This document shows, piece by piece, positions 7,562 to 34,211 of a stretch of 64,000 bases of DNA. The first letter of the stretch is position 1. Every line of letters starts with the position of its first letter. This DNA is from Eledone cirrhosa. Lineage: Eukaryota. Location of the stretch: assembly GCA_964016885.1 (NCBI GenBank), contig OZ024742.1, positions 311,922,001 to 311,986,000 on the forward strand. Direction: 5' to 3'. The notes beneath the pieces were generated by a model. It did not search any database. It saw only the letters and a list, made by a program, of their open reading frames with translations, and had not been told where the DNA came from. A program made the translations under genes and the position numbers.

Positions 7562-9961
7562 TATATGATAAATAAAATCGTTTATTTATATATAATAATG
7601 ATTTCTAGTATAGGCACAAGGCCAGTAATTTTGGGGGGAGGGTAGAATCGATTAAACCGACCCCAGTACGTTATTGGTACTTTATTTTATCGACCCCGTA
7701 AGGATGAAAGGCAAAGTTAACCTCGACTGGATTTGAATGCAGACTGTAAAGAGCCGTAACTCTATGCTGCAAAGCATGGTCTCCAACTCTCTACCGATAC
7801 TGCTATTCCACCACCCTTTTATATATAATAAATAATACAACATATATTATGTATAAAGAAATATTATATATTTTTTATTTTACTTTATTTATATATAATA
7901 TGTAACATTTGATATTTAATATACTATTATATAATCTCTACCTCCCCAAAGTTGCCTTAGGCTCCAGCGCCTCCTTGGACCTCCTCAACGCACCCCAGGG
8001 ACGGTAGCGCCCACATTGAGAACCTCCGCCATAGTTTCTTAACTCCTGACGGAGTCGTAGGGGCAACCTTGTGATATATGGCGTGTCCTGATTAGCTTGG
8101 CCGAACTCATCCTTCTGCTTGTCTGAATACAGCCGAAAACTTCTTGAGAAAGAGAGCGATTAAAACAAAAAGAAAGTGAGAAAGATAAATAGAAAGAATA
8201 TCAACCTTAGAACTAGACGGATACTTTATTTATCGACCTCTAAAAGACGAAAGGCAAAGTTGAACTATGAGCGCTTAGTACTCAATACTTAAGAAAGTAG
8301 TGTGTAGGTATTCTAATAGTTTTCTGTCCTACATTAAGTCATCCACTGGTTAGTGAATATATGTAGGGACATTATAAATATAGTAGAGTTTATGAAAGGA
8401 AAATTACATGCCATAGCTATTTTTAGTCCAGAGGAAAAGTATAACACTTATTTTACGTTTGTCATCAAATTCTGTCGCAATAACTACACATTCATATATT
8501 AATGATACTTTATATTGCTTTCTGTAGGAATTTAACAATATTGGAAGAGTTTACAAAGCAGTGGAAGATCAGCTGGTACTAAAAGATAGAAGATGATCAT
8601 ATAATCTACCAACGATATAGACCAACGCATTTAGAAAGATATCCGCACTTGCAGGTATCTTATGTGTGTGTGTGTATATATATATATATATATATATATA
8701 TATATATATATATATATATATATATATATATATATATATATATATATAAAAGAAAATTCTACATGGCTGAATACAATAAATGAAATCTGAGTTTTTCGAA
8801 TATTAATAATAACATTCGATTCGTTTGCAATTATGCAAACAAGCGTCAATTTATAGCCATGTCAGTAGAATGAACACTTCATTCTTGCTCTTGTGTTCGC
8901 ATGTGAACAGAACTGTTCACATGCCAACAGGCTTGTTTGCATTGGCAGTATCAGTAGAGGGTCGGACGCCATGCTTTCCAGCATAGTTACGTCCCTTTAC
9001 GGTCTGAGGTCAAATCCCGCCGAGGTTGACTTTGCCTTTCATCCTTACAGGGTCGATAAAATAAAGTACCAGTAATGCACTGGGTAATTGCTGGCCTTGC
9101 GCCTAAAGTAGAAACAATTATTAATATTCGAAAAACTCAGATTACATTTATTATATATATATGTATATATATATATATATATATGTATGTGTGTGTGTGT
9201 GTGTGTGTGTGTGTGTGTGTGTGCAGATTTGATGAGATTTGTGTTGTGTTAACACTGATCTGAGGATCGGACAGTCTTGGAGTCTGGTCAAAGGGTGCCA
9301 TCCCAAATCACGAGCCAGTTGCTAGAAAAATTTGTAACCAGGATTGAGCAATAAATCTCCTATGTAACATCTCCAATTTGTTCTTATTATATATATTCCA
9401 GCATAGTTATGCCCCTTTACGGTCTGAGTTCAAATCCCGTCGAGGTTAACTTTGCCTTTCATCCTTACGGGGTCGATAAAATAAAGTACCAGTAATGCAC
9501 TGGGTAATTGCTGGCCTTGTGCCAAATGTAGAAACAATTATTTATGTATATATATATGCCAGGTGGTGCTATAAAGTAAGACATGGCCTGGGCCAATACT
9601 GAAACCTATGAAAGCTATCAAAGTTATATATACATATATATATATTTATATATATATATATATGTATAAAAACAAATAACGAAACGAAATTAAATTTCGT
9701 TTCGTTTGTAACTCACTTTTGTATGACTGACGCTTAAACAATTAAGTTAAAGATGTACATCCATATATGTATACTGAAATACTAGTATGTATATGAATAC
9801 ACACACGTATACATATGTAGATGTACCAAGTTTTTTCACTGGTCACTTTACTGTGAGTGGCCAGCTATTCTGTATGTAAACACACAGACAAACCGGTTTT
9901 TAGAGTCATACTGGTTTTTGAGGAAACACCTTTCCTCTATTCTCCAGAAAGCCAGACAAGG

Positions 9962-10006
9962 AATATTGAACTAGTTTCGTTGTTGTTACAACTCATCAGC
10001 AATATT
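9962..10006 (-). ncRNA. Minimal type I hammerhead ribozyme in the inverted arm of array 1
   Basis: Exact reverse complement of 10666-10710. Confidence 0.85.
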
Positions 10007-10665
10007 TACCTATCTTCCGGCCTCTCTAGAGAATCGTAAAAGCATATATCGTTATATGCTTTTTCTATGAAAATTAGTAGTGGGCAGACTAATTTGCATA
10101 GAGTGTGAGTAAGTACCGGTTCAACGGAGACGATAAAAACAAATAACGAAACGAAATTAAATTTCGTTTCGTTTGTAACTCACTTTTGTATGACTGACGC
10201 TTAAGCTGATGAGTTGTAACAACAACGAAACTAGTTCAATATTCCTTGTCTGGCTTTCTGGAGAATAGAGGAAAGGTGTTTCCTCAAAAACCAGTATGAC
10301 TCTAAAAACCGGTTTGTCTGTGTGTTTACATACAGAATAGCTGGCCACTCACAGTAAAGTGACCAGTGAAAAAACTTGGTACATCTACATATGTATACGT
10401 GTGTGTATTCATATACATACTAGTATTTCAGTATACATATATGGATGTACATCTTTAACTTAATTGTTTAAGCGTCAGTCATACAAAAGTGAGTTACAAA
10501 CGAAACGAAATTTAATTTCGTTTCGTTATTTGTTTTTATCGTCTCTGTTGAACCGGTACTTACTCACACTCTATGCAAATTAGTCTGCCCACTACTAATT
10601 TTCATAGAAAAAGCATATAACGATATGTGCTTTTACGATTCTCTAGAGAGGCCGGAAGATAGGTA

Positions 10666-32179: not shown

Positions 32180-32306
32180 ATATATATATATATATATATA
32201 TATATGTGTGTGTGTGTGTGTGTGTGTGTGTGTGTGTAATATATATATATATATATATATATATATATATATATATATATATATATATATATATATATAT
32301 ATATAT

Positions 32307-34211
32307 AATTAAGTTAAAAATGTACATCTACATATGCATACTGAAATACTAGTATGCATATGAATACACACACGTATACATATGTAGATGTAACAAGTCT
32401 TTCACTAGTTACTTTACTGTGAGTAACCCAGCTATTCTGTATGTAAACACACAGACAAACCGGTTTTCAGAGTCATACTGGTTTTCGAGGAAACACCTTT
32501 CCTCTATTCTCCAGAAAGCCAGACAAGGAATATTGAACTAGTTTCGTTGTTGTTACAACTCATCAACAATATTTACCTATCTACCGGCCTTTCTGGAGAA
32601 TCGTAAAAGCACATATCGTTATATGCTTTTTCTATGAAAATTAGTAGTGGGCAGACTAATTTGCATAGAGTGTGAGTACGCACCGGTTCAGCGGAGACGA
32701 TAAAAACAAATAACGAAACGAAATTAAATTTCGTTTCGTTTGTAACTCACTTTTGTATGACTGACGCTTAAACAATTAAGTTTAAAAAATGTACATCTAC
32801 ATATGCATACTGAAATACTAGTATGCATATGAATACACACACGTATACATATGTAGATGTAACAAGTCTTTCACTGGTTACTTTACTGTGAGTAACCCAG
32901 CTATTCTGTATGTAAACACACAGACAAACCGGTTTTTAGAGTCATACTGGTTTTCGAGGAAACACCTTTTCTCTATTCTCCAGAAAGCCAGACAAGGAAT
33001 ATTGAACTAGTTTCGTTGTTGTTACAACTCATCAGCAATATTTACCTATCTACCGGCCTTTCTGGAGAATCGTAAAAGCACATATCGTTATATGCTTTTT
33101 CAATGAAAATTAGTAGTGGGCAGACTAATTTGCATAGAGTGTGAGTACGTACCGGTTCAACGGAGACGATAAAAACAAATAACGAAACGAAATTAAATTG
33201 CTGATGAGTTGTAACAACAACGAAACTAGTTCAATATTCCTTGTCTGGCTTTCTGGAGAATAGAGGAAAGGTGTTTCCTCAAAAACCAGTATGACTCTAA
33301 AAACCAGTTTGTCTGTGTGTTTACATACAGAATAGCTGGATACTCACAGTAAAGTAACCAGTGAAAGACTTGGTACATCTACATATGTATACGTATGTGT
33401 ATTCATATGCATACTAGTATTTCAGTATGCATATGTAGATGTACATTTTTAACTTAATTGCTTAAGCGTCAGTCATACAAAAGTGAGTTACAAACGAAAC
33501 GAAATTTAATTTCGTTTCGTTATTTGTTTTTATCGTCTCCGTTGAACCGGTACGTACTCACACTCTATGCAAATTAGTCTGCCCACTACTAATTTTCATA
33601 GAAAAAGCATATAACGATATGTGCTTTTACGATTCTCCAGAAAGGCCGGTAGATAGGTAAATATTGCTGATGAGTTGTAACAACAACGAAACTAGTTCAA
33701 TATTCCTTGTCTGGCTTTCTGGAGAATAGAGGAAAGGTGTTTCCTCGAAAACCAGTATGACTCTAAAAACCGGTTTGTCTGTGTGTTTACATACAGAATA
33801 GCTGGGTTACTCACAGTAAAGTAACCAGTGAAAGACTTGTTACATCTACATATGTATACGTGTGTGTATTCATATGCATACTAGTATTTCAGTATGCATA
33901 TGTAGATGTACATTTTTAACTTAATTGTTTAAGCGTCAGTCATACAAAAGTGAGTTACAAACGAAACGAAATTTAATTTCGTTTCGTTATTTGTTTTTAT
34001 ATATATATATATATAAATATATATATATATATATATATATATATATATATATATATGTATATATATATATTTCGTTTCGTTATTTGTTTTTATCGTCTCC
34101 GTTGAACCGGTACGTACTCACACTCTATGCAAATTAGTCTGCCCACTACTAATTTTCATAGAAAAAGCATATAACGATATGTGCTTTTACGATTCTCCAG
34201 AAAGGCCGGTA
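32307..34211. mobile_element. Retrozyme-like array 2, diverged variant of the 467-bp unit: about 1.9 inverted units (32307-33199), about 1.7 direct units (33200-34000) and a 143-bp continuation (34069-34211)
   Basis: Homologous to array 1; intact HHRs at 32998-33042 (-) and 33660-33704 (+), 5'-truncated at 33201, mutated core (UUGAUGA) near 32529-32573. Confidence 0.9.

Follow-up and report, generated by a model that had tools for sequence, protein, structure and literature searches.

Within a 64-kb window of the Eledone cirrhosa genome (the whole stretch of DNA that was analysed, numbered from its first letter), we examined a block of about 24.5 kb (9666-34211) in which copies of a Penelope-like element (PLE) lie among non-coding repeats that carry hammerhead ribozymes (HHRs). 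Three of these repeat families, with units of 467, 432 and 2134 bp, carry the 'tail' that is specific to PLEs, namely two fixed 3' ends combined with an inverted, 5'-truncated arm. [quoted passage not shown] Since a PLE tail, an inverted arm and the same target occur here without shared sequence, the families provide genomic evidence for trans-mobilisation. Their footprint bears on how PLEs make inverted, tailed insertions, and on which enzyme moves animal retrozymes, a link for which the published support is co-occurrence and similarity to pseudo-LTRs (pLTRs).

Two fixed ends on three non-coding families

The window holds the following copies of the three families:

9666-12800: first insertion of the 467-bp family, (TA)n on both sides; left arm 9666-10204 (minus strand, outer end B), right arm 10205-12800 (plus strand, 5.6 units, outer end A)
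10673-10703, plus strand: type I HHR core in the 467-bp unit, with helices I and II of 7 and 5 bp and helix III ACUAGU
11140, 11607, 12074 and 12541, plus strand, and 9999-9969, minus strand: further 467-bp HHR cores
32308-33997: second insertion of the 467-bp family; left arm (minus strand, end A), right arm (plus strand, end B)
34071-34209: 139-bp fragment of the 467-bp family, after the second insertion
17296-18819, minus strand: partial tandem of the 432-bp family, interrupted at 17758-18657 by an insertion of 900 bp; its HHR (17476-17443) has helix III ACACUAGUGU
24513-27348, plus strand: copy of the non-coding 2134-bp family; short end at 24513, where the inverted arm starts, and long end at 27348, where the partial tandem stops
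24608 (minus strand), 24987 and 27109: degraded HHRs of the 2134-bp copy

Each family consists of tandem non-coding units with one type I HHR apiece, and the longest frames starting with ATG measure 30, 81 and 86 aa in the 467-, 432- and 2134-bp families, respectively. Genome-wide family counts, made with sequence patterns (exact or one-mismatch), gave 5212 exact matches to a 30-mer of the 467-bp HHR, often as minus-then-plus runs, 1545 matches at one mismatch for the 432-bp family and 172 exact 20-mer matches for the 2134-bp family. The 467-bp units match Rfam Hammerhead_HH9 at E-values of 3e-6 to 2e-5, under the gathering score. All three window HHRs of the 2134-bp family fail the type I scan, and Rfam returned no ribozyme in four loci of this family or of a 615-bp repeat described below; at the family level the 2134-bp HHR is intact across 30 genomic loci, with helix III AUGAUCAU. 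For the 467 and 432 motifs, two copies are predicted to pair with each other through helix III, as is known for double hammerheads (PMC4209133).

The outer ends of 467-bp insertions fall at unit position 260-266 or 333-336, and two-armed insertions had one end of each type in 24 of 26 cases and two alike in none, the remaining two (L003 and L010) having an irregular end (p = 6e-8 for 24/24 under independence). One end of each type was likewise found in 10 of 12 insertions of the 2134-bp family, with none alike and two irregular, and in about 14 of 16 scoreable insertions of the 432-bp family, which were judged by eye with five irregular loci set aside. All three PLE copies in the window have two outward-pointing arms whose outer ends fall at two fixed sites, lying ~42 nt and ~210 nt downstream of where the HHR cleaves, and one short and one long end were present in 8/8 scoreable two-armed copies (three in the window and five among 27 loci). 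An automatic pairing of inverted HHRs gave 44 pairs, of which four were dropped (end more than 420 nt away) and 36 of the remaining 40 were unequal; on reading, three of the four seemingly equal pairs also proved unequal, i.e., 39/40 across families, although the automatic measure uses the first (TA)4 tract and single values may be off. Tail lengths differ between families, at about 165 nt in the PLE and 74, 32 and 146 nt in the others. A hairpin lies ahead of each of the two 467-bp ends and of the long end of the PLE, and a weaker one ahead of the short end of the 432-bp family.

The same families share the target of the PLE. By eye, the outer end lies at (TA)n in 32 of 34 independent loci of the 467-bp family (the other two in (CAT)n and in AT-rich sequence), compared with 14/115 3' ends of short interspersed nuclear elements (SINEs) and 4% of random positions. 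A bias towards (TA)n and towards inversion, which the first-pass annotation of this DNA had set as the check on its proposal, was found at dispersed loci in the 467-, 432- and 2134-bp families. Inner junctions of the 467-bp family lie mostly at unrelated positions in the two arms. The 467-, 432-, 615- and 2134-bp units had no similarity at E 0.01 to the three window PLE copies. The annotation had described several non-coding HHR families unrelated to the PLE, and this holds for the 467-, 432- and 2134-bp units, but not for the short palindromes, which are ends of coding Hydra elements (see below).

The structure of large 467-bp arrays bears on how they were copied. One array has 7 + 13 ribozymes in its arms, with all 18 full units identical, and differs by 1-5% from other loci of its own subfamily; a second has 20 units at 0.12% difference, and in a third the arms differ by 0.09%, compared with 0.77% to the nearest locus. 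Such identity of units across both arms fits both arms having been copied from one template. A compensatory change in helix II separates 467-bp subfamilies, and a paired change of this kind suggests selection on the fold. The predicted 467-nt circle would be strongly paired (-151 kcal/mol, compared with -92 +/- 5 for 40 shuffles).

Several further observations concern these families. One large 467-bp array (L163; G000:C1:56387566-56392265) carries a period-3 variant in one arm (units 3, 4, 6, 7, 9 and 10) that is absent from the other arm, which suggests either amplification of a higher order or a template of three units. The L191-L194 block and L166-L168 contain older relatives of this family (partial identity 67-76%), with units of ~520-580 bp, an internal TA tract and helix III ACUAGU, and their sequences suggest a long-lived retrozyme lineage with several waves. 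A 469-bp subfamily array in L170 was considered as a pLTR and rejected, as its inverted arm faces the ORF (open reading frame) and it is thus a nested insertion. Among contigs from four sequencing runs, loose ends in (TA)n at 10937 and 11006 (run X1, possibly the assembly's own sample) were not counted as support. One copy of the 432-bp family (17758) is broken by a Helitron-like element of 900 bp and others (9086-9151) by a SINE, at nearly the same ATTAAT site, a possible insertion hot spot; from its end motifs the insertion at 17758-18657 is a putative Helitron-type non-autonomous element, and 9396-9544 is presumably a SINE.

Hydra-clade elements as candidate helpers

The PLE copies of the window are laid out as follows:

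27366-32177, minus strand: intact Hydra PLE with its long end Y at 27366, followed by a 3' region of 1.7 kb, the ORF, a partial tandem (31545-31824) and an inverted arm (31823-32177) ending at X
29040-31499, minus strand: ORF of 819 aa from Met, with reverse transcriptase (RT) and C-terminal GIY-YIG; Hydra motifs RWR, DKT, CxCX5C, CxxC and CxH, no CCHH
18841-23602, plus strand: Hydra PLE copy whose ORF (19469-21896) is frameshifted; the inverted arm (18841-19442) has end X and the main arm end Y
13491-15223, no strand assigned: 5'-truncated two-armed Hydra PLE copy lacking an ORF; its short end X lies at 13491 and its long end Y at 15223
14974-15012: HHR-like motif in the truncated copy, core CCGAAGA, helix III ACAGCUGU

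One intact and two defective PLE copies, as first annotated, are therefore present, and the frameshift of the copy at 18841-23602 is a 23-nt deletion near 19915. The 819-aa protein is encoded by a single ORF, with YRDD at 354, a GIY-YIG-like motif at 697-714, RWR at 38-40 (R for K), DKT at 123, CNCRVNRTC at 678, CNLC at 776 and CQH at the end. Its GIY-YIG core has one Cys only and no internal Cys pair, and CxxC and CxH flank the conserved E and N. A Pfam search returned no family at E 0.1 for any of three proteins. By the motifs as defined in PMC8557442, the element belongs to the Hydra clade, an assignment made from the protein sequence. It inserts at (TA)n and has an HHR with the CCGAAGA core variant in its terminal repeat; this hammerhead has C in place of the usual U4 and one unpaired base on each side of helix II. 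A 32-mer of the PLE HHR occurs 3893 times exactly in the genome, so the variant is family-wide.

The element has much in common with described Hydra-clade PLEs, including Hydra-1_Obim of Octopus bimaculoides (Craig et al. 2021, PMC8557442), i.e., the C-terminal GIY-YIG domain, DKT, an RW motif, CxCX5C, CxxC and CxH, the lack of CCHH, the (TA)n target and an HHR. It differs in several respects from the elements presented there. Its unit is ~4.2 kb with a 1.7-kb 3' region, whereas described Hydra elements are generally <3 kb (Hydra-1_Obim measures 2507 bp, with 'no pLTR'), its tail is ~165 nt and not 30-40, its HHR core is CCGAAGA, and its genome holds many families and many intact copies.

Among the 150 best-scored copies the PLE family is 96-100% identical, with many retaining the full 832-aa frame, and on these sequences the family is young. 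Hydra remnants are numerous in a 1-Mb genome sample (25 evenly spaced blocks of 40 kb), at ~27-56% identity, and two further Hydra families that were searched keep long open frames, recurring at 821 and 713 aa. With several intact Hydra families at hand, the 819-aa protein is only one candidate helper. A protein search returned 315 relatives; among the 120 listed, identity was 31-46%, an Argonauta relative was present, and no helper was singled out. Many Hydra-like protein matches of ~700 aa lie on contigs of 2.3-3 kb, near one element unit, and could be unit-length or circular PLE sequences.

Probable mobilisation in trans and its alternatives

In the reading that we favour, tandem transcripts of the non-coding families would self-cleave as double hammerheads and may circularise, while the GIY-YIG domain of a Hydra enzyme would nick both strands of a (TA)n tract. 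Each nick would then prime reverse transcription at one of two internal sites, copying would run back through the HHR junction, and the two cDNAs would join at variable points. Although both start sites are downstream of the point of cleavage, the copies continue back across the ribozyme, which points to a circle or an uncleaved multimer as the probable template.

Two internal start sites that define the genomic tail, called unique to PLEs, have been described in vitro for Poseidon PAc of Anolis (Frangieh et al. 2024, PMC11167929). As in Eledone cirrhosa, both sites lie downstream of the HHR; with PAc both target strands were nicked and extended, and a dimer was predicted. In the accessible part of that report, this was shown only for PAc's own RNA, whereas here one site per arm is seen in the genomic record, and on unrelated non-coding RNAs as well. 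A more specific model, to which we give tentative and rather doubtful status, would have a dimeric Hydra RT-endonuclease grip one circular ribozyme RNA at two fixed sites, prime once per (TA)n nick and roll round in both arms, with unrelated viroid-like circles exploiting the enzyme by shape alone and, together with their helpers, having filled the genome with ~300,000 hammerheads. The rule of one end of each type per insertion yields a sharp prediction about coupled priming, which would be simple to examine in vitro given enzymes that are young and intact, a candidate template of 467 nt and two start sites already mapped.

A number of points weigh against copying in trans as set out above. 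Cleavage, circles and trans-mobilisation are themselves predictions from sequence. Unit-shared variants occur in three of five large 467-bp arrays, one of them with period 3, and suggest local amplification or multimeric templates rather than a monomer circle. Like ends were seen in two 432-bp insertions and one other pair, and no notable hairpin was found at the other 4/8 ends and no fold common to the start sites, so the hairpins do not establish the recognition by structure that the first-pass annotation proposed. As to the helper, at least three Hydra families in the genome keep long open frames, and a Neptune-type PLE lies just beyond the window. Coding parents of the non-coding families could also be rare, above all for the 432- and 2134-bp families. 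In the literature, PAc showed no strand difference in start site in vitro, and HHR cleavage was dispensable (PMC11167929); PLE families of A. vaga were reported not to cross-mobilise (PMC3846280).

The best-surviving alternative, which we nonetheless regard as unlikely, is that the units are truncated termini (pLTR plus 3' region) of unsampled coding Hydra elements, moved in cis, with the tandems arising later by unequal exchange. This route has been proposed by Li et al. for vertebrate retrozymes (bioRxiv 10.64898/2026.07.22.740005), it holds for the mini-palindromes of the block (the CAAUUG HHR lies shortly after Hydra ORFs), many sampled HHR families are linked to ORFs, and the shared, periodic variants of the large arrays are in its favour. 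Against it, monomers lacking an ORF stand head-to-tail at many dispersed loci, and both arms can be multi-unit and identical. An ORF lies upstream at 0/34 loci of the 467-bp family, compared with 6/27 PLE HHR loci that run unbroken into an ORF (p ~0.005, computed with 35 loci, two of which are one insertion; flank lengths differ between the families). No ORF was found directly upstream at the 432- or 2134-bp loci examined, where flanks were mostly 1.5 kb and copies mostly short; for the 2134-bp family, the search for a coding parent covered 30 loci with 1.5-kb flanks, L165 and the window. Finally, the units matched none of ~50 regions downstream of ORFs, except in adjacent or nested insertions, in a sample of families that is incomplete.

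A narrower version of the trans reading, in which the 819-aa family is the helper of all non-coding families in the block and forms one system with them, appears very unlikely. The 819-aa family is young, with many 832-aa open frames at 97-98% identity, and the youngest 467-bp arrays are equally fresh, with identical target and geometry, but it is not the only intact Hydra family, an identity of about 70-95% makes the 432- and 2134-bp families look older, the tail lengths differ, and HHR motifs are common everywhere. We give hardly any credence to inverted arms made by self-priming or fold-back on one, possibly antisense, template, or to a non-Hydra mobiliser (Neptune, Naiad): some inner junctions do lie on palindromes (L012, L326 and L330), antisense-template self-priming was proposed by Arkhipova et al. 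2013 (PMC3846280) and octopus Naiads also favour (TA)n (PMC8557442), but for most inner junctions the positions in the two arms bear no relation to each other, fold-back alone leaves two fixed outer ends, one per arm, unexplained, and Naiads have no canonical HHRs and are described as long inactive in cephalopods (PMC8557442).

The general idea of copying in trans by a PLE is already published. Taken together, PMC7229834, bioRxiv 10.64898/2026.07.22.740005, PMC8557442, PMC11167929, PMC4209133 and PMC3846280 propose that PLEs mobilise retrozymes, that circles serve as templates for copies longer than one unit, and that inverted insertions carry a tail at one of their ends. The metazoan non-LTR retrozymes (Cervera and de la Pena 2020, PMC7229834; Li, Clavereau and Pollet 2026) are, as here, non-coding low-GC tandems with one type I HHR per unit, thousands of dispersed copies and a proposed PLE mobiliser; they were reported in a mussel in this literature (PMC7229834 / bioRxiv 10.64898/2026.07.22.740005), and the 2026 study sampled 31 vertebrates, three insects and one coral. 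The 467- and 432-bp units fall within the few-hundred-bp size of retrozymes, and the 2134-bp unit is above the 51-972 bp reported (bioRxiv 10.64898/2026.07.22.740005). In contrast to the described retrozymes, the Eledone cirrhosa families are two-armed and (TA)n-targeted with two fixed end sites, and one has a unit of 2.1 kb; the accessible text of PMC7229834 does not contain the words inverted, microsatellite or cephalopod, nor does that of bioRxiv 10.64898/2026.07.22.740005 contain 'tail'. Homology to pLTRs was not found in the sequences sampled here, whereas 24/57 Xenopus families matched known elements, mostly PLEs (bioRxiv 10.64898/2026.07.22.740005); such homology is a proposed origin in the model of Li et al., and lies outside the retrozyme definition of 2020. 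Chlamys elements such as MRC1 (PMC8557442) and the pLTR-flanked cargo of Adineta (PMC3846280) are likewise non-autonomous and multicopy head-to-tail, with a PLE acting in trans, but they generally share 3' or pLTR sequence with their helper, and most Chlamys elements have no HHRs (PMC8557442, PMC3846280).

Our literature search, which took in few subscription papers and not Repbase, found no paper that treats retrozymes of cephalopods, retrozymes with tails or inverted arms, or paired priming by PLEs. The first-pass annotation had known of no such system in cephalopods, and in the papers searched this stands for retrozymes; Hydra-1_Obim is listed with a (TA)n preference in the supplement of PMC8557442, so a cephalopod Hydra element was already known. 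Added here are the footprint evidence on unrelated sequences, the near-strict rule of one end of each type and the very high ribozyme density.

Ribozyme density and the other repeats of the block

The block at 9666-34211 consists almost entirely of repeats with microsatellites in between, i.e., three copies of one PLE, two 467-bp arrays, the 432-bp unit, the 2134-bp partial tandem, repeats of 605 and 516 bp, and short palindromes. A relaxed scan found 16 type I HHR motifs, compared with a mean of 0.05 and a maximum of 1 in 100 dinucleotide shuffles, and helix III is palindromic in 14 of the 16. The palindromes CUAG, CAGCUG, CAAUUG and CACUAGUG, all listed in the first-pass annotation, were recovered in block HHRs; CACGUG, also listed there, was not, as CACGTG occurs in the block only within the PLE 3' region, without a ribozyme core.

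In the 1-Mb sample we found 107 HHR motifs per Mb (bootstrap 78-137), with 3 in shuffled and 5 in reversed sequence, and a range of 0-11 per 40-kb block; the same scan gives 15 motifs in the 24.5 kb studied here, about half of them supplied by the two tandem arrays. Helix III is palindromic in 73 of the 107, and a TA tract lies within 250 nt downstream in 86% and upstream in 39%, compared with 24% at random positions. Extrapolated to the genome, 78-137 per Mb would mean a load of ~230,000-410,000 HHRs, above the 126,247 reported for axolotl (PMC7229834), though descriptors differ between the two counts. The block is thus dense in HHRs of the same kind as in the rest of the genome, and is a nested pile-up. 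As HHR motifs are this common everywhere, being neighbours in the block says little, and as each insertion leaves (TA)n on both sides, the nesting would be explicable in the absence of a functional link. The idea of the block as a single helper/parasite system was given up: the genome has many Hydra families, at least three with long open frames, the mini-palindromes come from others, and HHRs are genome-wide.

The remaining repeats of the block are these:

15568-15710: mini-palindrome without an HHR; 83% match to the terminal region of another Hydra family, located downstream of an ORF
16174-16359: CAAUUG mini-palindrome formed by two truncated arms of a different coding Hydra family, with an HHR at 16296-16325
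16500-17280, minus strand (from the fixed end): 605/615-bp tandem family with a single fixed end, at (TA)n; lacks both an HHR and an inverted arm
23639-24270: 516-bp partial-tandem repeat with a short inverted end; no HHR found

The mini-palindromes, once viewed as non-coding parasites, match the ends of coding Hydra families (the CAAUUG palindrome at two loci and that at 15568 at one) and are therefore truncated two-armed copies of other PLEs. The distance from a Hydra ORF to the CAAUUG HHR that follows it is 179 nt at one of these loci and no more than ~250 nt at the other. A palindrome at 34917 has a 72% match to a relative, two more HHR-bearing ends lie outside the block at 43487-43541 and 34849-35113, and several loci show a link between the AUGCGCAU family and Hydra ORFs.

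The 605/615-bp and 516-bp repeats were rejected as HHR families, the former as a retrozyme too: its unit has no type I HHR on either strand and no inversion, and none was found in the 516-bp repeat. The 615-bp family has 4225 genomic matches and forms one-directional arrays of 17-20 or more units (L091-L120), with the fixed end at (TA)n in 11/11 loci. A (TA)n end that comes with neither inversion nor HHR means that (TA)n adjacency alone does not imply a PLE-type mechanism; Naiads, which target (TA)n and have no HHR, are a candidate mobiliser of this family.

Elsewhere in the window, 61561-64000 is a two-armed truncated copy of another Hydra family (endonuclease 38% identical), and the Neptune-type PLE just beyond the window (L158) has DKG and an internal Cys pair. 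Inverted-arm elements with (TA)n flanks and internal (TG)n, in which the scan found no HHR, occupy 44253-46177 and 46990-47080. Non-LTR retrotransposon ORFs lie at 1603-5106, 51462-55076 and 55434-56822, of which one group adjoins (TTA)n tracts, and a single stop at 52104-52106 interrupts an ORF that is nearly complete.

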